A DNA stretch of 64,000 nucleotides from IMG/VR virus record IMGVR_UViG_3300029288_000059, positions 1 to 64,000 of that record. One strand, 5' to 3'. Below, one piece after another: positions 3,001-56,067 of this stretch (positions are counted from its first letter, which is position 1; each line of letters begins with the position of its first letter). This stretch comes from a virus. Its lineage: Duplodnaviria; Heunggongvirae; Uroviricota; Caudoviricetes. The translations under genes and the position numbers were made by a program. The notes under the pieces were generated by a model. The model did not search any database. It saw nothing but the letters and a program-made list of their open reading frames with translations, and was not told the DNA's origin.

Positions 3001-4299
3001 TTAAGAATGGAATTTACGCCTAATCTTAACTCCTTTAGGACGTGATAATTTGACTTTGTTATTATGACAATGTAAATCACTACCTATATAAGTAGCACAA
3101 CCCTCTAAACTTGTTAATTGGTTATAACTACAATCTAAATCACCACCTATATATGTAGCACAACCATCTAAACTTGTTAATTGGTTATTGTTACAGTAAA
3201 AATTACCACCTATATAAGTAGCACAATATTTTAAACTTGTTAAGTGGTTATTATAACAACCAAGACTACCCCCTATATAAGTAGGACATCCTTTTAAACT
3301 GGTTAAGTGGTTATTATAACAACCAAGACTACCACTTATACTAGTAGGACAACCCGTTAAATTTGTTAATTGGTTATCGTTACACCATAAATCACCACCT
3401 ACTTTGGTGGGACAACCTTCTAAACTTGTTAATTGATTATTACCACAATCAAATATACCGCCTATGCTTTTGAAATGAGGTAACTTGGTTAATCCCATAT
3501 CGTATAAATCTACATCTCCTTTAACAACAATATCTTTCATCTCGTATAATTGTTTGAGTGTATATATTTTGTTATCTAAACTAACCAGGCCTATATTTCT
3601 AATATCTTTAACTTTTTTAAAGTTATTCAAGTTAATAAAAGTTGAAATATACTCTCTATATTTCTCAACAACTGGTTGATTTTGCTTACCTTTTATCTGT
3701 TCTAATATATTATCAGTTACTTCCATAGTAGCATGGGGTTCGTTTTTAGTATCACGTAATGAGTAAATTATAGTTTTACCACTAGTAACTTTAGTATCAT
3801 AAGTCCCTTTACCAACACAATGTCCCATGTGTTCTGACTCGTAATCAAGTGCAGTAGGAGTAAGCAATTGTAATATCTTATAACCATCACTATATGTATG
3901 TATTAATTTAGTACCAGCTACGCCATCTTGTGTATTTGTTACTTTTTGTTTATTAAACCAAGTTTCTGCTGTTTGATACGCCATATCAATATTTTTAATA
4001 TTATTAAATGTGGCTGGGTTGGGATTACTAGCTGTTAGCCAGTCCCTTATATGTGTTAATTGATTGGTTAAGTCGTCATTTGGTTTAAACTTACGTAATG
4101 TATCTTGTTCTTTGTCTTTAATATCCCATTCATTGGTTAATTGAGTAGTTATTTTAGACATATATTTTGTATTATTAGATATTTCTTTATAAAACAGTTT
4201 ATACATATATGGATTGGTTATATATTGCTTCAAGTAATCACCTAAAGCAGTATCATTATAGACTCTATATTCGTTCAATAACTTTAAGATGTTTACCAT
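3001..4299 (-). CDS. PcfJ-like domain plus 21-aa leucine-rich-repeat protein (paralogue A)
   Basis: L..ES..MGHCVG...IYSLRD...PHAT.EV...QIKGK.N motif; six CxxNxLTSLxGCxTxIGG repeats. Confidence 0.8.
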   Translation of the reverse strand: MVNILKLLNEYRVYNDTALGDYLKQYITNPYMYKLFYKEISNNTKYMSKITTQLTNEWDIKDKEQDTLRKFKPNDDLTNQLTHIRDWLTASNPNPATFNNIKNIDMAYQTAETWFNKQKVTNTQDGVAGTKLIHTYSDGYKILQLLTPTALDYESEHMGHCVGKGTYDTKVTSGKTIIYSLRDTKNEPHATMEVTDNILEQIKGKQNQPVVEKYREYISTFINLNNFKKVKDIRNIGLVSLDNKIYTLKQLYEMKDIVVKGDVDLYDMGLTKLPHFKSIGGIFDCGNNQLTSLEGCPTKVGGDLWCNDNQLTNLTGCPTSISGSLGCYNNHLTSLKGCPTYIGGSLGCYNNHLTSLKYCATYIGGNFYCNNNQLTSLDGCATYIGGDLDCSYNQLTSLEGCATYIGSDLHCHNNKVKLSRPKGVKIRRKFHS

Positions 4300-22926: not shown

Positions 22927-23886
22927 TCAAAATGAAAACAAATGATTGATAGTCTTAGTTAATGGACGATTACAAAATAGTCTTTCCATTTGTCTTTTTC
23001 TATTGTTTTGCGCGAAAGTGACTCTTTTATCAATAGAATACAATTCATATAGTTTCGATTCATACTCACTCACAAATATACTAAACTCATTCTTATCTAA
23101 CCAATCGTAAAATCGTTCATTATCAAAGCCACCACACTGATACTCCCCGGTATTATTATACGGTGGGTCACAATATATTATTACTTCATCATTGGAATGT
23201 GGGATAATAACATCATAATAATTCTTATTGTATATAGTCATGTCACCAGTAAGACGTTCTAATTGTTGCATATTCAATAGATGTTGTATTTGTTGAAACA
23301 TTTCTCGTTCGCCCGGAGCTAAAGTATTATATATCTTCCCCATCTGGTTGCGATAATTTAATCTTCGTCCGTTGATTGTATCGTTATTTGGTAAAATGAT
23401 ATCGATATCTAATAATGCATTCAATTTAGCCAATGCACTCTTATCTTCATATACAATAATATCATGTGCATAATGTTTCATTACTTCTAAATCTTGCCGA
23501 TATAAATAGGTTTTGCCCATATTACCGAAAGAATAGCATATCTGTACAATACCACCGTAAGCCGAGTCATCACCCATCATATCTTTAAATTTAGTCCTAT
23601 CAACGAAGGAATACCATTCATTTGGATATCTACCATATGTTTTTAAACTGTCGCTATTCAAAGTAAAAGATAATAAATTGGCGATTGCTGAATTTAATTC
23701 ATTATATACCACATTATAACCCATCTTTAAAGCAGCAAACGACATACTACCGCCACCACCAAATAAATCATAAAAATAGGTGGCTTTCGGTTTATACTGT
23801 CGCATTTCATTTATTAATGTTTCTGCAATATTTTGTTTACTACCCATGTATGGTATTCTTAGTGGTTCGATCATCTTATATCCCAT
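22927..23886 (-). CDS. DNA adenine methyltransferase, D12/Dam-like alpha class
   Basis: PYMGSK, DLFGGGGS, YCDPPY, FVSEY. Confidence 0.88.
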   Translation of the reverse strand: MGYKMIEPLRIPYMGSKQNIAETLINEMRQYKPKATYFYDLFGGGGSMSFAALKMGYNVVYNELNSAIANLLSFTLNSDSLKTYGRYPNEWYSFVDRTKFKDMMGDDSAYGGIVQICYSFGNMGKTYLYRQDLEVMKHYAHDIIVYEDKSALAKLNALLDIDIILPNNDTINGRRLNYRNQMGKIYNTLAPGEREMFQQIQHLLNMQQLERLTGDMTIYNKNYYDVIIPHSNDEVIIYCDPPYNNTGEYQCGGFDNERFYDWLDKNEFSIFVSEYESKLYELYSIDKRVTFAQNNRKRQMERLFCNRPLTKTINHLFSF

Positions 23887-26344: not shown

Positions 26345-26537
26345 TACTTACCCTCCGATGCATTTCTTACCCATATTCATTCTCCTTCTTCCGTATCCAT
26401 GTTATTTCCCTTCTAATACTCTGTTATAATTTAAACATAACATTAGTAAATTTAAATGTCAATACCAATTAAAAACATTTTGATTTATACAAGAATCATC
26501 ATTATAATGACATTTAAGACATAATTTTTAGAACTTT

Positions 26538-26622
26538 TATAAATAAACTATAATTATGTTGAAAGACGTACTAAGGCGAGTTGTTGTACGATATTATCTA
26601 ATGTTTCGATATTTTATAAATA
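26538..26622 (+). promoter_or_regulatory. two T4-like late promoters upstream of the candidate ncRNA
   Basis: TATAAATA at 26538-26545 and 26615-26622. Confidence 0.5.
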
Positions 26623-26695
26623 ACTCGTTAATAAGTTTTATATACGTAGATTAAATGCTCTGTTTAATTAAAATATATAAAATGACTAAGACATA

Positions 26696-27485
26696 GTGAC
26701 TTTAACTAAATGATTGTAAACGATAAGATACTAATCTGAAATGGATTAAAGGTTTATCGCAATTAACGGAAGGGTTGGTTCGCCTCCAGGAACGTTAGCT
26801 GTCACAAAGAGCCGTAATGAAAACCACCGGTGTGGGTAAAAAGCCTTTCCGGTGCGGATGACGGGATATCAACTATAAATTAGTGACCTAAGCTAATATT
26901 AGTTGAAATTCAATTTTCCAAAAGTGAATTAAATAGGTCGCTCTTACTGATGGTAAGATGACAAAATGACGGGGAGTCGAGCATGCCCCTTATAAAAGAT
27001 AGGTTTGTATAACAAGGTTGATGCGTTATATGGACTGACCGATACATTGAAAGTAGCTGGATATGGGACGACAATAAAATGACATCCTAATAGGTTTGTA
27101 ACTTTAAACAAACTAAACAAATTATTATTTGTATGCTTTACTTGTAAAGCAAGTCGTTAGGAATGGTTTATTAACGGGCCGGATGGGGCGAAATTAATCA
27201 GGCGTTGTGTAGATATACTGCGGGTAGGGTATCCCTCGCAGGGTGTTAGTATTATTTTGGAAGAACTAAACTACCAATACTAACCTTTTAAATCTAGAGA
27301 GTTTAAAACACGACATTCAACAGCACGAAATAGAGATAGAACAATTTATATATTCAAAATTATAAAATCAGTCTTATTTCCTTGCCTTGTCCTTTATTTC
27401 AGCAACATGAGAAGTATGACCTTTTTGGTTTTCGTTGTTGAATTTGGGGCAGGGCAAGGAGCACGGCAGGAGATTTTTGTCTCCT
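26696..27485 (+). ncRNA. candidate large structured non-coding RNA (~790 nt), family unassigned
   Basis: No ORF; GC-enriched; more than 15 nested stems, many with + strand G.U pairs; possible pseudoknot and long-range closing helix. Confidence 0.68.
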
Positions 27486-27623
27486 ATATAAAGTAAAAGG
27501 TTGAATTTAAAGGTTAAAGATTAAAACATTTAGAAATAATGAAATTTAAGATTTAAATAAAAGATTAAAGATTAAAACATTTAGAAAATGATAATTAGAA
27601 TACAAAATGGATTAAAATTAAAA

Positions 27624-27729
27624 AAGGAATAAAATGGAGTTCAGTAATGAAACGAAGTGGAATTACTGAATGACATTTATTCCTTACCAGTAAGTGATTG
27701 GAACGAAGTGAAAATCCACTTACTGGTAA
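27624..27729. other. two adjacent long hairpins sharing the loop G(A/G)AACGAAGTG(G/A)A
   Basis: TTCAGTAAT/ATTACTGAA and TTACCAGTAAGTG/CACTTACTGGTAA stems. Confidence 0.75.
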
Positions 27730-27761
27730 TGGTTCGTCGTGTATGTAAAACAAAAAAATAA

Positions 27762-27900
27762 AACAACTTGAAATTGAATTGAGAAATAGATATAAATCCC
27801 AAATGTAAATTCAAAATACAGATTGAATTGAACAACTTGAAATTGAATTGAGAAATAGATATAAATCCAAATGCAAATTCAAAATACAGATTGAATTGAA
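27762..27900. repeat. ~69-bp tandem direct repeat x2
   Basis: AACAACTTGAAATTGAATTGAGAAATAGATATAAATCC... at 27762 and 27831. Confidence 0.9.
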
Positions 27901-28933
27901 GCTCAGAAAATTGGGAATTAACTAAATCTTGATTTGGGAAGAACTATGACTTGAATTGAAGAAATTCAAATCAGAAATTATTGAATAAGTAATCAAAGGA
28001 AGAAACAAGAAGAAAGTAAGAAAGTTTCATTTAGAAGAGAAGGAACAAGTCCTTCTCTTCGGAATAAGACAGAAATGAATACTGACGTATTCATATTCTG
28101 CTTATTCATATTTCAAGGTAATCCACTTTACATTTAAGAAGTAAGAAGGAATTCAAATCAGAAATATTATTCATTCAAATAAGAACTATATAGACACACA
28201 AAGAAATAATATAAAGCACTTACTTATATAAGTAATAAGTACATTCATATATCAATTCAAAGGAAGTAATGAAGGAAACAAGTAAGAAGTATAATATGGA
28301 TTCAAATAAGAATTACAAATAGACCAAATTCGGATTGAACTTGATACATCTAAGTAAGAATAAATGGATATCACTTATTCAAATATTATGGTATATACGT
28401 CAAACTCATATAACTAGATAATTCATTCATATAAGAGCTATATGGCAGTACTTGATGAATAATATGGATATATGACTCCTTCATTAAAGAACTCAATGTA
28501 ATGCGGATATAAGTACTTATTCAATAGAGATACTATGGGGTATATGTCGAATTTTAAATAAATTATGACATTTAATAAGTAAGAAAGAAAACAAGTAAGA
28601 AGTAAGTAAGAAAGTAAGGACGAATATTGTAACTTATTAAATATTGTGGGATATATGGCGGCGCGGGTGTGAAATCGGATTCCCGAATTGGAAATACGCC
28701 AATACATATTAGCTATATAAAACAAATGGATTTATACCTCATATACGGACAGTACAGTGAGGTCTTACTAAGTCATATACATATATGTAATACTAATCAA
28801 TCGCGTTGTATGTAGACATATATCGACTTATAACTTAGTGATTATATGGGTAAAAACTATTGGATTTCCAAATAGATATTGACTTATTTCCAATTTGTAA
28901 TATTATATGTAAGTAATAAATTCAAGGAATTAA

Positions 28934-30190
28934 TTGATGTTGAATCCCACTAATAAATTCGTATTGACTTCAGACCAAGTGAATGCATTAAAACAGCTAC
29001 ACTTATTCATGAATAGCAAAACTGCTAATATCTATATATTAGGTGGGTATGCAGGTACAGGAAAAACCACAGTACTTCGTTCATTAGTGAATGACTATGG
29101 GTACTCTTCCTTTTACTTCACAGCCCCAACAAATAAAGCCACTAATATATTACAACGTACTTTATGTGATAACAGGGCAAAATGTAGCACAATTTATTCC
29201 CTATTGAATATTAACATGGTACAGAAAGAAGACAAGTTAGCATTAAGCTATCCATCGGAAATAGCTGAAGTATATCGAACTATTGTTATAGATGAAGTAT
29301 CAATGTTAAGTTCTGTATTGATTCAATATCTATTACGTGTTGCCGAACATAACAAGATTAAGTTAATATTTATTGGTGATTCTGCCCAATTACCACCTAT
29401 TGGAGAACCATCATCCCCTATATTTAATATACAATCAGATTATCATTATACTTTAACAGAAGTTGTTCGATACAATGATGATATGTTAGAGATGGCAACT
29501 CACATAAGAGAATGTATATCGGAATCAAAAAAGATTGTAATTCCGTATACGGATTCGGAAAATATCAAAGTTAGAAAGTATGATGAATTTATAACTGATT
29601 TATTAAAATCTATTACTGATGGACAATTTACATCGGATAGTAAAGTTATAGCATGGCGTAATAAGACAGTTGATGAATATAACCAACTTATTAGAAAGAA
29701 CTTATTTAGCAATCCTAAGTGTAAGTTTGTAGTAGGTGAACGAATTGCAATGGCATCACCTGTCTTTAGAAATAAAGAAGTAATTGCTACTATTGATGAT
29801 GAATGTACTATTACAAAAGTTAGAATCGGACATGAAACCAAATTCAATATTAAAATTTATAGATTACACGTTAGGTTCGATAATGGAATGTCTTGTAAGT
29901 TAAATATTGTACATGAACTAGAACAATCTATATATGAACGCAGACTAAGTGGGTTAGCCCAAAAAGCCAAACAAAGTAATAACTGGAAAAGTTATTGGGA
30001 ATTAAAACAATACTTTCATACCGTACGTTACTCATATGCAATAACGGCACATCGTTCACAAGGGTCTACCTATAAACAGACATTCGTTGATGTAACAGAT
30101 ATATTATATAATTCAAACGTTAAAGAAGCGATGCATTGTTTGTATGTTGCCAATACACGTCAAACGGATAATTTAACAATCCGTATTTAA
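28934..30190 (+). CDS. dda: Dda-like SF1B DNA helicase
   Basis: GYAGTGKT, APTNKA, IDEVSM, GD.AQLPP, YAIT.H.SQGSTY. Confidence 0.9.
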   Translation: MMLNPTNKFVLTSDQVNALKQLHLFMNSKTANIYILGGYAGTGKTTVLRSLVNDYGYSSFYFTAPTNKATNILQRTLCDNRAKCSTIYSLLNINMVQKEDKLALSYPSEIAEVYRTIVIDEVSMLSSVLIQYLLRVAEHNKIKLIFIGDSAQLPPIGEPSSPIFNIQSDYHYTLTEVVRYNDDMLEMATHIRECISESKKIVIPYTDSENIKVRKYDEFITDLLKSITDGQFTSDSKVIAWRNKTVDEYNQLIRKNLFSNPKCKFVVGERIAMASPVFRNKEVIATIDDECTITKVRIGHETKFNIKIYRLHVRFDNGMSCKLNIVHELEQSIYERRLSGLAQKAKQSNNWKSYWELKQYFHTVRYSYAITAHRSQGSTYKQTFVDVTDILYNSNVKEAMHCLYVANTRQTDNLTIRI

Positions 30191-32699: not shown

Positions 32700-32939
32700 C
32701 TTCATAGCACGATTGCGTTCAGTTATAAGATAATTATAGGCCTTAATAATATTAAGCCTATCTTCGGACGACATATTCCATACTTCATCCCACGAGACAA
32801 TGCCATCTAATATAACAACCATTTTAGCGATTTCTTCTCTCATGTCTTCTGACTGTTTTTCTAATTCCATAATATACTGTTGAATTTCCTCATCAGTATA
32901 CGTCAGAAGTTTTATACGAAAAAAGATGATGGGTCCCAC
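32694..32939 (-). CDS. baseplate/tail chaperone C-terminal module, probably expressed by -1 frameshift
   Basis: -1 frame overlap with the upstream gene; S.DE.WN.S..DR..II motif; weak GTG start. Confidence 0.6.
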   Translation of the reverse strand: MGPIIFFRIKLLTYTDEEIQQYIMELEKQSEDMREEIAKMVVILDGIVSWDEVWNMSSEDRLNIIKAYNYLITERNRAMKK

Positions 32940-33754
32940 TTCATATCATTAATATCCCATTTGTGTTTGCATTCTACACATTCACAAACAGCATCTTTAA
33001 CGATTCCAATAGTTGCCATTTTACTAATCATACCATGTAGTTTATCCATAGTAGCTTTATCTAAGTCTAAGATGAACTCCTTGATATGTTCTTTATCTAT
33101 AACAATATCTTCTTCCGGAGTTACAATCTTTTCAATACTGGATAATATAGTTGTTAATTTGATATCCTGTAACGTTTCAAATACTTCTTCAAATTGTTTA
33201 TATTTGTCATCACTTGATGTAACGACATCCTCGTTTATATGTTTTAGTAATCTTTGTTGAAGAAATGTTTTTGTATTGTTATCCATATCTTCTTTAAATG
33301 AACGAGGTTGACAATAAATTTGTACACCATCATCGGTCTCCACAATATAATCATCCGTGAAATATTTAGTTTGGTCTAATATTGCCCGTATACTAAACGT
33401 CTGTTGTTGTTCTTTCTTACATTCAGGACAATTAACTTTAACAATAAATTCATCACCACGGGAGGCAAATTTAATAGCTAATAACAAGGCTTCTACGTCA
33501 TTGGCTTTTAATTGAGAGGGATCAACAATCTCAGGTACACATGAATGTATAATATCAATAATTGCCTGTCCTGATATCAATGCGTCAGGACTATTGAGTT
33601 CTAATTCGTCTTGTGTAGTCATAGCCTTAACATAGATTGCATTATCAATCGTATGGGAACTTAAAAAATCTTCTTTATACCAACGATTCATGGTAGGTAA
33701 TTTGATTGATATTTTGTTCTGTCTGAAATGTTTTTTTAGTGGGTTTTCACTCAT
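32912..33754 (-). CDS. T4 gp26/gp51-like baseplate hub assembly protein
   Basis: MSENPL..HFRQ.K..I.LP, MT..DEL....PDAL..G, CPEC and C..C pairs, C-terminal FF. Confidence 0.75.
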   Translation of the reverse strand: MSENPLKKHFRQNKISIKLPTMNRWYKEDFLSSHTIDNAIYVKAMTTQDELELNSPDALISGQAIIDIIHSCVPEIVDPSQLKANDVEALLLAIKFASRGDEFIVKVNCPECKKEQQQTFSIRAILDQTKYFTDDYIVETDDGVQIYCQPRSFKEDMDNNTKTFLQQRLLKHINEDVVTSSDDKYKQFEEVFETLQDIKLTTILSSIEKIVTPEEDIVIDKEHIKEFILDLDKATMDKLHGMISKMATIGIVKDAVCECVECKHKWDINDMKWDPSSFFV

Positions 33755-33784
33755 CTTAATACCTCTTTAAATTCCGTATCTTCT

Positions 33785-33800
33785 TATATTTATAAATATA
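33785..33800. promoter_or_regulatory. palindromic bidirectional late promoter TATATTTATAAATATA
   Basis: Contains TATAAATA on both strands between divergent late genes. Confidence 0.75.
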
Positions 33801-33818
33801 GAAAACGGGAGTTTTACT

Positions 33819-35996
33819 ATGACAGAAACATATGATGCACTAAAGACATATTCGGCTCAAATTGATGTCAAAGGACATTGGTTGACGGAGGAAACGTTTA
33901 AAGAATTCATGTCATTAGTTGATAAGGATAGTACTACTAAGAATAAGAAGAATAATTCATTTGTGGATAGATTTATTAACTCAAATGAAAAATCAAGTGC
34001 TAAAAATAATATAAGTATGAATCAATTATTGGATAAGATGAATAAATCCACTATTGAGATGATTTCAAAGATGCAAAGTATTATGGCTCATGCCTTAAAT
34101 GAAATCAATGACACTATGAATAGTGAGTTATCTAAAAGTGTTAAAGCTAGTAATTATAGTGCGATTATGTCGAATTTTCATAAAGCTATAGAGGCTAGTA
34201 AAGCTGATTTTGGTAAAAAAGAAAACTTAAAAGAGAATGTAGCAGTACAACAACTAGCACAAGTATTCCCTCAATACATGGACAAGATTAATAATTTATA
34301 TAAAGGATTTACTGAGAGTTTTAGTGATATGTCTAATCTTATGAGTAAGATTGATAATCAAAAATATAATAATGATGCACCACGTAATGATTTCTCATCT
34401 ATTGGTGGTGTATTTAAAACAATGGTTATTAATCCAATTATTGATAGCATAAATGTTTTAAATAATTTACGTGATAAAGGTTTGGGGTTTGGTATTACAT
34501 TAGAAAAGACACGATCATTAAATGCTGACCAATTTAGTACAAGTATTACTGAGTTTACTAACTTAACAAAGAATAATGCCGAAACTATAATACGTATGGG
34601 TAGTGGTGGATTAGAACTATTCGGCAATATATTAAAAGAAACTCGTATAAAAGTACAAGGACAATTTTATGGTTTGGGTATGAGTATAGACCAACTCAAT
34701 GAGTACACATCTGATTATTTAGATATTCAAAAGTTACAAGGGAATTTATCGTCTAAGTCTATAAATGACCAAACTACTAGCGCATCTAAATATATTAAAC
34801 AATTAGACCAATTATCACAAGTAACTGGTAAATCAAGGGAACAAATATCAAAAGAATTAAAGGATATTGTTAGTTCCGCCGATGTAACAACGGCAATAAG
34901 GTTATTACCTGAAAACATACAACGTCAAGCATCTGACCAATTTGGTGGGTTTGCAACTATGTTAGGGACGGTTTCTAAAACAGGTGAACAAGTATTTAAA
35001 GAATTATTCACTGCTAATGGATTATTTACACATGATTTATCTCAAAAGTTATTAGCGATTGACCCTGCATTAGCAAAAGTAATTCAACATACGGCACTAA
35101 TGGCTAGGGATGGCAAACTAACACACGAAGAACAAGTTAATGCAATGAATGAGATGAGAAGTATTATTTCCAAATCTCCTAATGCTGCCGCAAACTTAGC
35201 CTTATTGGGTGATGGCGTGGGGTCAGCAGCACAAGTCGTTATGGAATTTAGAGCTAATATGTTGAAATGGAGTGAGACACAATTAGTTGCATCTGAACGT
35301 CAAAATAAAGCAGCGGAAGATGCACAAGCAGCCTCTAATGCTATAACAGCATTAGGACATACATTTCAAAATGCAGTATCGACGTTTGTACTTAAATTGG
35401 GTGGTGGTAATTTAGAAAAGGGTATAGCAGTAGTTAATAGTGCAATTACAGATTTATCTACCCATCTAAATAAGGAGTTAGTTGCTGATATTGATAGTTT
35501 CTTTAAAGCGGTTAGTAATATAGTTAAATCCATTAATTGGTTAGCTGAAAAAATATCGAACCCATTTGGTTCTAGTAAGAAAGAACAACCTAAAATATTA
35601 ACATCACAAGAAAAAACTAAAATGGGTGACGAGGCAATGAAGAAGTTCGATGCTATGTTTGAAAATAGTATTGAAAAAAAACCAACAAACGTATTATCGG
35701 ATTTTGAACAATTTCGAATGGATAACATTGAGAAAACAAAAGCTGAATCATTTGATTTTTCAAAACTCAAACAGTGGAGTAATTCATTTATTGATAGTGT
35801 TAAACCTATGCCGAAATTAGAAACAACTAAAGTTAATAATGGACCAGTAGAACGTAAATTAGATGTTAATGTAAAGACTGATAATACTGATGTTGTTGAT
35901 TCATTATCACAAACTAATAGTCTATTACAAAAGATTGGTGATATGTTCTCATCTAAACATGATAGTGAAAAGTTTATTACTCCTACCTCTCACTAA
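33819..35996 (+). CDS. tape-measure-like protein
   Basis: Helical Ala/Ser/Gln-rich; LGMS..QLNE...Y...L...L..LS.VTGKSREQ motif. Confidence 0.62.
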   Translation: MTETYDALKTYSAQIDVKGHWLTEETFKEFMSLVDKDSTTKNKKNNSFVDRFINSNEKSSAKNNISMNQLLDKMNKSTIEMISKMQSIMAHALNEINDTMNSELSKSVKASNYSAIMSNFHKAIEASKADFGKKENLKENVAVQQLAQVFPQYMDKINNLYKGFTESFSDMSNLMSKIDNQKYNNDAPRNDFSSIGGVFKTMVINPIIDSINVLNNLRDKGLGFGITLEKTRSLNADQFSTSITEFTNLTKNNAETIIRMGSGGLELFGNILKETRIKVQGQFYGLGMSIDQLNEYTSDYLDIQKLQGNLSSKSINDQTTSASKYIKQLDQLSQVTGKSREQISKELKDIVSSADVTTAIRLLPENIQRQASDQFGGFATMLGTVSKTGEQVFKELFTANGLFTHDLSQKLLAIDPALAKVIQHTALMARDGKLTHEEQVNAMNEMRSIISKSPNAAANLALLGDGVGSAAQVVMEFRANMLKWSETQLVASERQNKAAEDAQAASNAITALGHTFQNAVSTFVLKLGGGNLEKGIAVVNSAITDLSTHLNKELVADIDSFFKAVSNIVKSINWLAEKISNPFGSSKKEQPKILTSQEKTKMGDEAMKKFDAMFENSIEKKPTNVLSDFEQFRMDNIEKTKAESFDFSKLKQWSNSFIDSVKPMPKLETTKVNNGPVERKLDVNVKTDNTDVVDSLSQTNSLLQKIGDMFSSKHDSEKFITPTSH

Positions 35997-36104
35997 TGTT
36001 AATTATAATCAACATTATCATTTATTGGGTTGTTTCAACTCAACATTTAATTACTACTATGATGATATTATAAATATAGTTATATTTTAATTATAGGTGG
36101 TTTA

Positions 36105-37841
36105 ATGGGTAGTTGGCAGCGACATATGAAATTAGAGGACACAACACCTAAGATGGGTGTTAAACCTAATAGTCACTCTAATGCCTTTTCCGGAGTATCG
36201 GGTTCATATTTGAGTAATGTTTATAGTGGTTCGCCCGGACGTATATCACGTTATGCACAATACGACCTAATGGAGTCAGACCCCGAAATTGCAACAGGAT
36301 TAGATATTATTGCCGATTTTTGTTCACAAAATTTAAAAGAAGATGATTTCGTACCTGTTAATTTAAGATTTAATTCTAGTAGTACTCGTATTGAAATTGA
36401 AACATTTGAATCTAAATTAACCGATTGGGTACATTTAAATGATATGGATGTACGGTCATTTTATTGGTTTAGAACACTGGCAAAATATGGTGACTTATTC
36501 TTCATTCGAGACCCTGAAACTTTTGAGTTATATGATGTAGACGTGTTTAATGTTGAAAATGCCATAGTTGACCCAAATAAAGGTAAAGAGATATTAGCAT
36601 ACTCTATTCGTAATGTTGATTTAAATGTAGCTAATAAAACCGCCGTTAGAATTGATGGTAGTCTGACTAATTATAATATGCCTGGTGTTGGTATGATTAA
36701 TGGTTGGAGTGGTACACAAAATAATACCAACTATGCAGCCAATATTGCTGATGCTAATGGTACTGCTGGTAATGTTGAAGCTACGACTACATTAGTTGAT
36801 GCCAAACACGTAATCCATATAGCATTAGGTTCAATTCATAGTTCACAGAGTTGGCCATTCGGAGAATCAATCCTTAATAATGTATTTAAAACATATAAAC
36901 AAAAAGAATTACTCGAAGATGCATTATTGATATATCGTATACAACGAGCCCCCGAACGTAGAGTATTCAAAATCTTTACAGGGCAGATGAATGCACAAAA
37001 AGCATCCGCTGTATTAGAACGTGTTAAGAATGAACAATATCAACAAAGATTACCCGTATCGGGTAATAACGGACAACCATTTACTATGATGGATGCATCA
37101 TATAATCCTATGTCTATACAGGAAGATTTTTACTTTTCAATGGATGAAGATGGACATGGTTCTACTGTTGAAACTTTACCGGGTGGTAATAATTTAGATA
37201 GTATTGATGATTTAAAGAACTGGAATAATAAACTAATAAGGGCTATGAAAATACCAGTATCATATCTACCAACTGGACCTGGGGATGGTTCGCAATCCTT
37301 TACTGATGGCAAACCTGGACAAGTATTAGTACAAGAATTGAGATTCAACAAGTATTGTCAACGTATTCAACGTGTAGTTGGTAAACAATTAGATATTGAA
37401 TTCAAAGTATATCTTAAACAGAAAAATTATCAATTCGATGCTGATATATTTGATGTAGTATTTAATGCCCCAATGAACTTTGCAGAATATACAATGAATG
37501 AATTATTAAGTTCTAAGATTAATAACTTCACTCAATTAGAAAATATACCATATATTTCAAAACGTTTTGCATTACAAGAGTTCTTAAAATTAACACCCGC
37601 ACAAATTAAAGAAAATGAACGCATGGTATTAGAAGAGAATGCGGATAAGAGTAAGAAGACAACACATGGTGTAAGTGGTGGATTTGATGATGGTATGGGT
37701 ATGTCGTCCGTTGGTATAACCCCTGATGATTTACAAGGTGATGAGTTTGATGGAGAACAAGATACTGGTGATACAAGTATGGGTATAGATACTCCCGAAG
37801 AGCCTGAACCAAGCGAAGAACCAACAGAAGGTGAATTATAA
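36105..37841 (+). CDS. portal vertex protein (T4 gp20-like)
   Basis: Y..ME.DPEI...LD, LLEDALLIYRI.RAPERRVF.I, EDF....G..V.TLPGG; TATAAATA at 36069. Confidence 0.93.
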   Translation: MGSWQRHMKLEDTTPKMGVKPNSHSNAFSGVSGSYLSNVYSGSPGRISRYAQYDLMESDPEIATGLDIIADFCSQNLKEDDFVPVNLRFNSSSTRIEIETFESKLTDWVHLNDMDVRSFYWFRTLAKYGDLFFIRDPETFELYDVDVFNVENAIVDPNKGKEILAYSIRNVDLNVANKTAVRIDGSLTNYNMPGVGMINGWSGTQNNTNYAANIADANGTAGNVEATTTLVDAKHVIHIALGSIHSSQSWPFGESILNNVFKTYKQKELLEDALLIYRIQRAPERRVFKIFTGQMNAQKASAVLERVKNEQYQQRLPVSGNNGQPFTMMDASYNPMSIQEDFYFSMDEDGHGSTVETLPGGNNLDSIDDLKNWNNKLIRAMKIPVSYLPTGPGDGSQSFTDGKPGQVLVQELRFNKYCQRIQRVVGKQLDIEFKVYLKQKNYQFDADIFDVVFNAPMNFAEYTMNELLSSKINNFTQLENIPYISKRFALQEFLKLTPAQIKENERMVLEENADKSKKTTHGVSGGFDDGMGMSSVGITPDDLQGDEFDGEQDTGDTSMGIDTPEEPEPSEEPTEGEL

Positions 37842-46222: not shown

Positions 46223-47521
46223 ATGGTAAACATCTTAAAATTAATAAACGAATATAGGGTCTATAACGATACTGCTTTAAGTGACTACTTGAAACAATAC
46301 ATTCAAAACCCATATCTTTATAAGTTATTTTATAAAGAAATATCTAATAATACCCAATATATGTCTAAAATAACATCTAAACTTACTAATGAATGGGATA
46401 TTAAAGACAGAGAACAAGATACATTACGCGAATTTGAACCAAATGACAACTTAACCAATCAATTAACCCATATAAGGGACTGGTTGACAGCTAGTAATCC
46501 AAATCCAGCCACATTTAACACTATTAAAAATATTGATATGGCTTTTAATATAGCCGACACGTGGTTTAATAAACAAAAAGTGACTAATACACAAGATGGC
46601 GTATCAGGCACTAAATTAATACATACATATAGTGATGGTTATAAGATATTACAACTGCTTACTCCAACAGCACTTGATTACGAGTCACAACACATGGGGC
46701 ATTGTGTGGGTAAAGGGACTTATGATACTAAAGTTACTAGTGGTGATACGATAATATACTCATTACGTGATACTAAAAATATACCCCATGCCACATTGGA
46801 AGTAACTGATAACACACTTAAACAAATAAAAGGTAAGCAAAATCAACCAGTTGTTGAGAAATATCGCGACTATATAACAGATTTTATTAATCTTAATAAC
46901 TTTAAAGATGTTAATGATGTTAAAAATATTGGCATGATTAAATTAGATAACAAAGTATATACACTCAAACAACTTTATGAAATGAAAGATATTATTGTAG
47001 AAGGAAATGTTGATTTATCGAAGTTGGGATTAACCACGTTACCTCATTTCAAAAGCATAGGCGGTATATTTGATTGTGGTGATAACAAATTAACAAGTTT
47101 AGATGGATGCCCAACTTATATAGGTGGTTATTTAGATTGTAGAGGTAACCAATTAACAAGTTTAAAGGGTTGTGCTACTTATATAGGTGGTAGTTTTGAT
47201 TGTCGTTATAACCAATTAACAAGTTTAAAGGGATGTCCTACTAGTATAGGTGGTGGTTTTGTTTGTAGTTTTAACCAACTAACAAGTTTAGAAGGTTGTG
47301 CTACCCGTATAGGTGGTGGGTTTCATTGTCGTTATAACCAATTAACAAGTTTAAAGGGATGTCCTACTAGTATAGGTGGTGGTTTTGTTTGTAGTTTTAA
47401 CCAACTAACAAGTTTAGACGGATGCCCAACTTATATAGGCGGTATATTTGATTGTGGTAATAACAAAGTTAAATTATCACGTCCTAAAGGAGTTAAGATT
47501 AGGGGTAATTTTTATAATTAA
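46223..47521 (+). CDS. PcfJ-like domain plus 21-aa LRR protein (paralogue B)
   Basis: Same length as and colinear with 3001-4299. Confidence 0.8.
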   Translation: MVNILKLINEYRVYNDTALSDYLKQYIQNPYLYKLFYKEISNNTQYMSKITSKLTNEWDIKDREQDTLREFEPNDNLTNQLTHIRDWLTASNPNPATFNTIKNIDMAFNIADTWFNKQKVTNTQDGVSGTKLIHTYSDGYKILQLLTPTALDYESQHMGHCVGKGTYDTKVTSGDTIIYSLRDTKNIPHATLEVTDNTLKQIKGKQNQPVVEKYRDYITDFINLNNFKDVNDVKNIGMIKLDNKVYTLKQLYEMKDIIVEGNVDLSKLGLTTLPHFKSIGGIFDCGDNKLTSLDGCPTYIGGYLDCRGNQLTSLKGCATYIGGSFDCRYNQLTSLKGCPTSIGGGFVCSFNQLTSLEGCATRIGGGFHCRYNQLTSLKGCPTSIGGGFVCSFNQLTSLDGCPTYIGGIFDCGNNKVKLSRPKGVKIRGNFYN

Positions 47522-47632: not shown

Positions 47633-48475
47633 ATGGCTAAGACTAATTATATATCAAATAAGAATCTATTAAGAGAAATTAATAACTCAAAGATGACTTA
47701 CTGTCAAGTATTGGATAAGAAATACCATGTATTTGATTATATTACGGAAGATTTAACTAATATTACTGATGAATTATTTCAAGAAATCAAAACTAAACGT
47801 AAAAGTAGACTCGAAGGAATTGAGATTGATAAGTTAAATAAGAAGAGTAAAACTTACCAACAAGAAAGAGCTAGTATTAATATTGATGTTAATGACGAAG
47901 ATGTAGTTATACGATTAATGACCAAAGAACATATAATTCCCTATATTACTGGTAAGATTAAGATTAACTTCCCCCCATTTAAACATTTTATTAAACAAGA
48001 TAATCAATGGGTAGAAGTTGTTCGTTCTCATTGGGAAGGTGATTTCACAACAGGTAAGTTAAATTTAAATAAGGGTAAATTATCAAATGAACTAGTTTTA
48101 ATGTTTATGGCATTAGCAAAGAGATATTCTTTTGTGGGTAAGTTTAGAGATTATACTTATAGAGAAGATATGGTAAGTGAAGCAACATTACATCTATGCA
48201 TTAATTGTTTAAAATTTAATGAGAGTCGTTCGGATAATCCATTTTCATTCTATACAACGTTAGTTACCAACTGTTTCAAAGCAACTTTAAAGATTGAAGC
48301 TAAATATCGAGATTTAAAAGATGATATTGCAATGGAAAATAATATGCCTGCATCATTTAACTCACAAGATTATCTTATTGAGGAAGCAAGTAAAGCATAT
48401 TACTCTAATGACCAAAGTTATGGACATAGTGTCTTTGTAGACGCAGAAAAAGGTATAGTTACAAATGATTTATAA
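47633..48475 (+). CDS. late-transcription sigma factor (T4 gp55-like)
   Basis: NY.SNK.LL.EI, RY....FR.YTY.EDM, F....S.NPF.FYT. Confidence 0.85.
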   Translation: MAKTNYISNKNLLREINNSKMTYCQVLDKKYHVFDYITEDLTNITDELFQEIKTKRKSRLEGIEIDKLNKKSKTYQQERASINIDVNDEDVVIRLMTKEHIIPYITGKIKINFPPFKHFIKQDNQWVEVVRSHWEGDFTTGKLNLNKGKLSNELVLMFMALAKRYSFVGKFRDYTYREDMVSEATLHLCINCLKFNESRSDNPFSFYTTLVTNCFKATLKIEAKYRDLKDDIAMENNMPASFNSQDYLIEEASKAYYSNDQSYGHSVFVDAEKGIVTNDL

Positions 48476-49208
48476 TGAAGATTGTCTTATTGGATTAAAA
48501 CGTATTCCTGATAAGTCGATTGACGCTTGTATTACAGACCCACCGTATTCATTAAATAAAGATTATGGTAATGATTCAGATAAGTTATCAAAGGCAGATT
48601 ACTTAGCATTTATGTATGAGTGGATTGATGAAGTTGATAGAGTATTAAAAGATAATGGTAGTTTTTATATCTTCTTGTCATGGCAATATAGTCCTGAGAT
48701 ATTTTCATATATTAAAACAAAGATGAATATGGTTAATGAAATTATATGGGACCGTAGAGTTCCTAGTATGGGAGGGTCTACAAGAAGTTATTCATCAGTA
48801 CATGATAATATTGGATTCTTTGTTAAGGGTAAAGGATATACTTTTAATATAGATGATATTAGAATTCCTTATGATGAAGAAACAAAAAAGAAACGGTCAA
48901 GAAAACGATTTGAGGGTGCCAAATGGTTGGAACTAGGTTGTAATCCTAAAGATGTATGGTCAATTAGTAGAATACATGGTCAATCACAAGAACGTCAACC
49001 CCATCCTACCCAAAAACCATTAGAGTTGATTAACCGTTTAGTATTAGCAAGTTCAAATGAGAATGATACAATATTAGACCCGTTTCTTGGTAGTGGTACC
49101 ACTGCAATTTCCTGTATAAATTTAAAGAGAAATATTATTGGATTTGAATTGAATCCAATATACTATACTCAAGTACTTAAAAGAATACAGGATAATAGTA
49201 ATGGATAA
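48465..49208 (+). CDS. DNA methyltransferase, N4/N6 beta class
   Basis: TDPPY before HPTQKP and DPFLGSGTT. Confidence 0.92.
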   Translation: MIYNEDCLIGLKRIPDKSIDACITDPPYSLNKDYGNDSDKLSKADYLAFMYEWIDEVDRVLKDNGSFYIFLSWQYSPEIFSYIKTKMNMVNEIIWDRRVPSMGGSTRSYSSVHDNIGFFVKGKGYTFNIDDIRIPYDEETKKKRSRKRFEGAKWLELGCNPKDVWSISRIHGQSQERQPHPTQKPLELINRLVLASSNENDTILDPFLGSGTTAISCINLKRNIIGFELNPIYYTQVLKRIQDNSNG

Positions 49209-55170: not shown

Positions 55171-56067
55171 ATGAGTGAACTATATATACAACAAGATAAG
55201 GGTAAAGAATATAACTTATACAACATTAAAGATGAAGTTGTAGGTAGTTATATGTTACATCCTAAATCGGAAAATGTATTGAATGTGACTGTAAAGGGTA
55301 AATTTGTTTTACCTTATAAATTTAAATTGTATATGGATGTGTTAAAACTTAAAAAATTAGGACTTGTGATAGAGAAACAACCTAGTATTACTAAACAAGA
55401 AGAAGATATTTTATCTCAAACGTTAGATACTATGGATGATGATAACCTTGAAACGGTGAGATACATTGATAGTGTCCTACTAGACAGAATCCTGTCTGCG
55501 AAAAATCAAACGGAAGTTGATGTCATTGTGACAGATGTTAATTCTCATAAAGAGGACGAGTCATATAACACATACAGGAACGCCAATCCATCAGAAAAGG
55601 ATGATAATACTTCTATATTTAAGAATTGGTATTTACGTACATTTACCAATACGGATAAACAAATTGAACAATTAATGACGTGCTTAAATAATCGTTTAAT
55701 ACGACATGGTACGCCATTAACAGTTGATGAATTGAATTCATGTATTTTCCATATAACGCTAGAATATCGTAAGAGGTTTAAACCAAACGAAACATTAATA
55801 GAAATATATTCCTATTATGGATATCAACATTTGAAACCGAAGACTCTTGATCAAATATTACTATACCCCCCTCATTACTTTGGCAAGTATGGTAGCGATG
55901 AACATAAGTTATATTTCTTAATGGATAAAGTATCTAATAGAGATATTCCATTATCACTGTATAGATTATGCGACGCGTTTTTCACATCACTATCATTTGG
56001 ACAGTTAAACAGATATAAAGATTCTGTTAAATTAAAAGTATTTGAATCAATAATGAATTATAAGTAG
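55171..56067 (+). CDS. hypothetical protein with (W/L)YRTF...KQI domain
   Basis: GAGG RBS; shared motif. Confidence 0.65.
   Translation: MSELYIQQDKGKEYNLYNIKDEVVGSYMLHPKSENVLNVTVKGKFVLPYKFKLYMDVLKLKKLGLVIEKQPSITKQEEDILSQTLDTMDDDNLETVRYIDSVLLDRILSAKNQTEVDVIVTDVNSHKEDESYNTYRNANPSEKDDNTSIFKNWYLRTFTNTDKQIEQLMTCLNNRLIRHGTPLTVDELNSCIFHITLEYRKRFKPNETLIEIYSYYGYQHLKPKTLDQILLYPPHYFGKYGSDEHKLYFLMDKVSNRDIPLSLYRLCDAFFTSLSFGQLNRYKDSVKLKVFESIMNYK

Follow-up and report, generated by a model that had tools for sequence, protein, structure and literature searches.

The large RNAs of phages that come closest to the locus described here are GOLLD (RF02032) and ROOL (RF03087), which are ornate, pseudoknotted and 600–800 nt long (PMC12286853). 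They often lie beside a tRNA island, the conserved part of GOLLD is its 3′ part, and no protein partner is known for ROOL; phages have few large RNAs of this ornate kind, most of them without an assigned function. A second set of comparable systems consists of TnpB and Cas12f with their omega-RNAs, together with TldR and dCas12f. The WED-REC lobe of TnpB and Cas12f binds the guide RNA and unwinds DNA. Domestication of TnpB into transcription factors has been described (10.1101/2023.11.30.569447). In group I introns the P7 helix holds the guanosine site, and IStrons join such introns to IS605 elements (PMC3984707). T4 origin transcripts, ColE1 RNA II and the mitochondrial CSB II primer RNA are RNAs that enter an AT-rich origin and have a G-rich 3′ part. 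ColE1 RNA II provides the 3′-OH primer for leading-strand synthesis, and the T4 origin RNAs are not known to form a conserved, ornate family. R-loop RNA primes replication at T4 origins (PMC3016281), and the R-loop of the mitochondrial origin is stabilised by G-rich RNA (PMC3488243). Finally, Pseudomonas phage PA5oct encodes a 619-nt RNA, ncRNA004, verified by RNA-seq (PMC7318152).

The locus analysed here lies in a window of 64,000 nt, which comprises the initial 64 kb of a phage contig of 289,811 bp (31% GC; 79% complete according to CheckV); all words sampled from the sequence occur in a landfill metagenome. The phage is a distant T4-type jumbo phage, whose portal protein shares 41–44% identity with the portals of Atu_ph07, PA5oct and Asteriusvirus and 46% with that of the closest metagenomic relative. 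The locus is an intricately folded RNA gene of a family of 600–800 bases, uncatalogued so far and belonging to uncultured jumbo phages. It is free-standing, non-coding and preceded by promoters, and is made up of a pseudoknotted core that is conserved, a middle part that varies and a 3′ hairpin rich in G (Table 1). In related phages, a gene for a TnpB-derived protein is its unexpected neighbour, making this a new large phage RNA family with a protein gene linked to it. In contrast to GOLLD and ROOL, no tRNA island is present, no covariance-model match to either family was obtained for the window RNA, and the conserved part is at the 5′ side. The RNA does not belong to any known family tested, and the gene–RNA cassette fits none of them. 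In the titles and abstracts searched, which left most subscription papers outside the coverage, no description of an RNA paired with a nuclease-less TnpB-like gene was found.

Table 1. Coordinates of the RNA gene, its parts and neighbouring features in the window
Feature	Position	Strand	Remarks
Sigma70-like promoter match	26480..26508	+	10/12, weak: such sites no commoner than in shuffled sequences
Two late-promoter boxes TATAAATA	26538..26622	+	In a 25-nt direct repeat
RNA gene, about 800 nt	26688..27485	+	Ends inferred from 5′ motif ACATAG and terminal hairpins
5′ domain	26696..26805	+	Closing helix 26696-26700/26801-26805 and long hairpin 26712-26764
Stem with invariant purine internal loop	26764..26797	+	GAAGG/AGGAA
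P3-like helix CCGY/RCGG	26812..26864	+	26812-15/26861-64, around A-rich linker and hairpin 26825-26854
P7-like pseudoknot helix	26855..26940	+	C26855-G26940, bulged 26856, invariant G26857-C26939
P9-like hairpin, UGAWN loop	26942..26962	+	6/6 pairs covary; followed by conserved UGA
Variable middle domains (multiloops)	26963..27378	+	Unalignable to relatives
Long 3′ hairpin	27379..27460	+	Pyrimidine-rich 5′ arm, G-rich 3′ arm
Final short hairpin	27468..27485	+	Probable 3′ end; no T-tail terminator called
AT-rich direct-repeat region, probable replication origin	27490..28930	.	Twin GAA-capped hairpins (27624-27729)
Dda-like helicase gene (dda)	28934..30190	+	Neighbour specific to the lineage
Baseplate gene (-), gene for 725 aa and portal gene (+)	32912..37841	.	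Syntenic block 3′ of the RNA in relatives
Late sigma factor gene	47633..48475	+	phrog_12791, E 2e-63

The window RNA has a minimum free energy of -216.6 kcal/mol and its plus strand folds far better than shuffled sequences (z -6.5, against z -2.8 for the minus strand), a difference that fits plus-strand folding dependent on G.U pairs. A preliminary description of this DNA had taken the many G.U pairs as a sign of RNA and not DNA structure, with which the asymmetry is consistent. All eight of its named stem pairs that were checked are present where it had placed them, as are two TATAAATA boxes at 26538 and 26615. It is also borne out in that no open reading frame is found, the longest stop-free frame on either strand of 26690–27490 being 69–70 codons, and that the GC fraction is 0.34–0.40 in the RNA and 0.21–0.29 immediately outside. 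The locus lies in the longest ORF-free stretch of the genome, where the genes switch from the minus to the plus strand. Two of the proposed pairings are not supported. A pseudoknot between 26885 and 26934 was rejected, since its loop is not conserved in the homologues and its 3′ strand pairs instead with 26855–26859, in the covarying P7-like helix. A long-range helix between 26811 and 27463 is unneeded, as the GCCGT at 26811 covaries with a local partner, 26861–26864.

Searches with Rfam covariance models, those of GOLLD, ROOL and OLE among them, gave no match at the gathering score for the window RNA and its homologues L090, L100 and L121; the matches obtained were short, weak (E values up to 10, the best 0.078) and to unrelated families. 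For RNase P, tmRNA and group II introns, neither a model match nor tRNA-like ends were found with Rfam and ARAGORN, and blastn against cultured phages gave no match. By eye the sequence also resembled RNase P, rRNA, the T-box, group II domain V and a permuted group I intron, but the homologues do not keep the words on which these likenesses rested, and all of them were set aside.

Five further distinct homologues are present in related uncultured jumbo phages (L090, L100, L106, L121 and L131). In the phage whose portal is closest (L090/L091), a similar RNA occupies the syntenic position ahead of the baseplate–portal block, and motifs common to this RNA and that of the window led to L097/L100/L105 and L106. 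The route to loci L121 and L131 was the neighbouring protein and made no use of the RNA; their RNAs match with E values of 5e-18 and 7e-19. A profile built without the window sequence finds positions 26766–26869 as the sole significant site in 290 kb (E 1.5e-4). When the six distinct cores are aligned with MAFFT, 15 of the 26 pairs named by the analyst in the core of about 200 nt (26764–26962) change compensatorily, on both sides of the helix, and 97% of cells pair. None of 500 shuffles reaches this level and slid controls pair at 27–46%, controls that flatter the core, as its structure was derived from the same six sequences. A close relative in wastewater contigs has few differences in the 5′ domain, including three compensatory double changes (26699/26802, 26714/26762 and 26765/26796). 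A structured RNA family thus almost certainly exists, and the suggestion that it might be a new class of large phage RNA is supported by the covariation among the six sequences and by the lack of a meaningful Rfam match.

In the crossing helix of the core, the G26857-C26939 pair beside the bulge is invariant and is followed by a covarying pair (A26858-U26938 in the window; U-A, A-U or C-G across the alignment) and then by U26859.G26937. The invariant G-C pair is kept in eight sequences and the adjoining bulge is present in seven; a conserved G is located just after the P9-like hairpin. Locus L130, outside the alignment, matches the model with an E value of 0.06 and keeps the crossing helix as GCCA/UGGC, while L132 fits the core by eye and keeps the P7-like helix. 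A descriptor of the core, tuned after L130 had been seen, finds one site in this genome as well as L100, L121, L131 and L130; it misses L090 and L106 and gives one false site in PA5oct. The core was not detected in L123, L129 and L154 (E 0.57 for the latter), and in PA5oct, Atu_ph07, XaC1, EJP2 and 121Q no convincing core was found (best E 0.13). Beyond the core, the window RNA cannot be aligned with its relatives except for the G-rich 3′ hairpin. With 3′ ends set by hand, eight of nine related RNAs terminate in a long hairpin whose 3′ arm is G-rich, L121 being the one without; so does the RNA of L154, a locus used as a blind test. Some homologues fold only weakly better than shuffled sequences (L090, z -0.7; L121, z -0.6; L100, z -1.8). 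Exact-pattern scans starting from the window alone gave chance matches or none, and a scan of a genome collection with the family pattern gave six matches, all rejected by the family profile. The dda gene and the upstream 132-aa gene were useless as handles for finding homologues.

In all five relatives the RNA is preceded by a gene for a protein of about 290 amino acids. The gene (276–293 codons) is directly upstream of the RNA in L090, L097/L100, L121 and L131, with one small gene between the two in L106; it occupies L097:9561-10439 (-), L106:2887-3759, L090:4559-5434 and L121:819-1649. The protein family has 179 clusters at 50% identity, with lengths of 240–345 amino acids and no Pfam match; the best 150 family hits are all of at most 345 amino acids. 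The gene is usually divergent from one for endonuclease VII or a PDDEXK protein. An AlphaFold2 model, from 117 sequences (pLDDT 90.5), has TnpB, Cas12 or Fanzor proteins as all of its top 29 structural matches, the best being residues 3–211 of dCas12f (Z 10.5, r.m.s.d. 3.6, 166 residues aligned). The matched part comprises only the N-terminal WED and REC domains of dCas12f, Cas12f, Fanzor2 and TnpB (Z 9.8–10.5), while the first unrelated structure scores 4.8; a weak profile match to Fanzor1 (E 0.001) was also obtained. The neighbour in the relatives is therefore predicted to fold like the WED-REC half of TnpB or Cas12f without the RuvC domain. No RuvC domain, active or dead, is present: the model ends after the WED strands and no RuvC reading frame follows downstream. 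A search of the ESM Atlas gave no more than a sub-threshold "transposase" lead.

No member of this protein family was detected in the genome of the window, which is 79% complete; the window reading frame 55171–56067 and gene 0352 of PA5oct were considered and are not WED-REC homologues. In a search that had no positive control, the protein was not found in PA5oct, Atu_ph07, XaC1, EJP2 or 121Q. Five more distant family members also precede a long non-coding stretch (L123, L129, L130, L132 and L154). In the first four, 450–1150 nt are free of genes, directly after the protein gene or after one or two small reading frames, and the stretch folds better than shuffles in L129 (z -5.8) and L132 (z -3.3). 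In the blind-test locus L154, a promoter of the sigma70 type, 847 nt of structured sequence (z -6.05) and CTTCG motifs are present besides the G-rich 3′ hairpin; L124 is uninformative, its sequence ending 53 nt after the gene. As L154 and others keep the arrangement without a core match, the pairing of gene and RNA extends further than the core can be detected.

In all loci the RNA is intergenic and has its own predicted promoter. The late sigma gene that had been recognised as gp55-like is real, and TATAAATA is a genuine late promoter of this phage: it is found in 30 of the 100-nt regions upstream of reading frames, including those of portal and baseplate genes, and 61 times in the genome, with 4.1 expected. 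Late expression of the RNA, as proposed earlier, is accordingly plausible in this phage only; the tandem boxes are real, but in the relatives a promoter of the sigma70 type precedes the conserved 5′ motif by about 13 nt. This motif, ACATAG, is common to the window, L090, L100, L106 and L131 and is absent in L121. Among the runs compared, all of them in the form of contigs, one metatranscriptome contig covers 26862–27040 (depth 4.8); the same run contains a diverged dda piece at depth 8.4, so the contig does not count as a sign of transcription.

The cumulative GC skew of the contig has its minimum at 26548 and its maximum at 182,887. The skew at fourfold-degenerate sites is not the same in co-oriented as in head-on genes (p=0.002, with arms defined from the skew itself), which indicates that the switch has a replication component. 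The RNA thus probably lies at an origin, along the inferred rightward leading strand, a placement that rests on this genome, the loci of the relatives being short for a skew test. Downstream of the RNA there are about 1.4 kb of AT-rich repeats, followed by dda. The twin hairpins at 27624–27729 share the same GAA-capped tip, and CTTCG/CGAAG motifs are also located 3′ of the RNA in L129, L132, L121 and L154. Tandem AGATCT sequences occur about 80–100 nt after the RNA in three relatives (L090:6512-6525, L106:4792-4805 and L100:1438-1451), recalling the GATC-containing unwinding repeats of oriC. Downstream of the RNA, an inverted repeat, its arms being GAATTGGG, is common to L121 (2480-2510) and L131 (1320-1370). 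In another phage, a structured gap of 710 nt is located upstream of a dda homologue (L093:7291-8000; z about -6 for the plus and -4.9 for the minus strand); it has no core match.

The explanation that we favour, tentatively, is that of an origin RNA forming an R-loop primer with the help of the nuclease-less WED-REC protein. The RNA would be transcribed towards the AT-rich origin, its 3′ part would enter the unwound DNA and persist there as an R-loop, and leading-strand synthesis would be primed by its 3′-OH, as in T4 origin transcripts and ColE1 RNA II. The WED-REC protein would bind the RNA and open or hold the DNA without cutting it; in this phage, the protein may have been lost, have diverged past detection or be encoded in the missing fifth of the genome. 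Transcription, RNA–protein binding and function are inferred. Several observations favour this reading. The structure is conserved, the skew minimum is about 140 nt upstream, and AT-rich repeats, GAA-capped hairpins and dda follow downstream. The relatives have CTTCG-type hairpin motifs downstream, three of them share tandem AGATCT, the G-rich 3′ arm recurs, and the predicted fold of the partner is that of the RNA-binding, DNA-unwinding lobe of TnpB and Cas12f. The late promoters suit priming poorly, however, and priming leaves these and the undetected WED-REC gene unexplained. Within the RNA the G-rich arm is base-paired; its role may be no more than protection of the 3′ end, and L121 does without it. 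Gene and RNA meet at a conserved boundary between gene clusters, so their adjacency could reflect nothing but synteny, and the pseudoknot core is not accounted for by priming itself. No sequence relation to the T4, ColE1 or CSB II RNAs was seen, and priming by the window RNA is our proposal. If the RNA primes replication, it would show how these jumbo phages start copying; a complex of RNA and protein, if there is one, would be a novel result of the domestication of TnpB. Handles for experiments are the covarying pseudoknot core of about 200 nt, the small RuvC-less candidate partner related to Cas12 and TnpB, and the position at a probable origin. Origin priming and the other readings are not all mutually exclusive.

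It is possible, if doubtful, that the RNA is instead an ornate RNA like GOLLD and ROOL, an abundant late transcript that would assemble itself into a multimer or cage or act as a protein scaffold or sponge, with the neighbouring gene its binding partner or there by coincidence. The analogy drawn in the preliminary description holds for the size only. Size, ornate fold and the real late promoters of this phage agree with an RNA of this kind, as does the persistence of the RNA in a genome where the protein was not found. (A)GGCA repeats are located in A/C-rich unpaired linkers at two to three times the shuffle mean (L100:980-1080, L129:5040-5210 and L132:2790-3130), with 8 copies of GGCA against 2.8 expected in L100, 8 against 3.0 in L129 and 11 against 5.2 in L132; possibly, these are protein-binding repeats. 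GGCA is not enriched in the window RNA, though, and the sigma70-type promoters of the relatives, the absence of Rfam similarity and of a tRNA island (no tRNA was called in the window by ARAGORN and two genome-wide, near 223 kb), and a family that travels with a nuclease-less TnpB-like gene set it apart.

An RNA-guided DNA-binding regulator like TldR or dCas12f, in which the RNA would be an oversized omega-RNA with a 3′ guide that represses or activates phage or host promoters, is unlikely. The nearest structural relatives of the partner are dCas12f, Cas12f and TnpB, and in the relatives the RNA is located directly 3′ of the gene and has its own promoter, as this reading would have it. A guide-like match elsewhere in this genome is missing, however, the longest being 16 nt where shuffles give 15–17, and the protein was not found there. 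The RNA is also far longer than omega-RNAs, those of TnpB being several times shorter, the RuvC domain is wholly absent, and no transposon parts were seen.

We also consider it improbable that the RNA is a ribozyme, derived from an IStron-like unit of group I intron and TnpB, whose guanosine-binding core would cleave or ligate RNA, in self-processing, or DNA presented by the protein. The helices follow the order P3-P7-P3′-P8-P7′-P9, with the invariant G-C pair by a bulge and the conserved G after the P9-like hairpin, and a TnpB-type gene is nearby. The mapping onto P3 and P7 is the analyst's own; the P7-like helix is shorter, with three to four pairs and not six, and non-canonical in sequence. 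In group I introns the pair after the P7 G-C pair is nearly fixed, while here it varies (A-U, U-A, C-G). Between the P3 strands there is no P4-P6 but just a 9-nt A-rich linker and one hairpin. A P1 splice site and exons are lacking as well, and thus the window RNA is not a group I intron; nor is there an Rfam group I match. The RNA follows the gene and does not surround it, a gene order unlike that of IStrons, and the core was not detected in L123, L129 and L154. The likeness may still reflect common ancestry or chemistry. A combination is likewise improbable: the protein of a domesticated TnpB system would have retained only the half that binds RNA and opens DNA, and a giant RNA whose catalytic domain resembles that of group I introns would be the business end of an RNA-guided ribonucleoprotein, which would prime phage replication or cut nucleic acid at an active site made of RNA instead of RuvC.

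Folding of single-stranded DNA, as part of an origin or a packaging signal and without RNA, would suit the position at the skew minimum beside repeats, but is highly improbable given the strand-asymmetric folding (z -6.5 against -2.8), the many G-U among conserved pairs, the covarying pseudoknot and the dedicated promoters.

PA5oct ncRNA004 (L096:6117-6735) is similar in several respects: its phage is of a related jumbo group (portal 43.5% identical), it is structured (z -5.8) and it is located at a strand switch before an AT-rich tract. However, it failed the HMM, covariance-model and descriptor tests for the core and was rejected as a family member; no WED-REC gene was found with it and the skew minimum is only local. 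Among other features of these genomes, the portal gene of L106 (8099-10936; 945 amino acids) contains a large insertion that is probably an intein; a portal match of 929 amino acids carries PF14890. The window contains two DNA methyltransferase genes (22927-23886 and 48465-49208) and two 432-amino-acid paralogues (3001-4299 and 46223-47521), both of which match the unnamed PHROGs 3169, 21719, 7816 and 7484.
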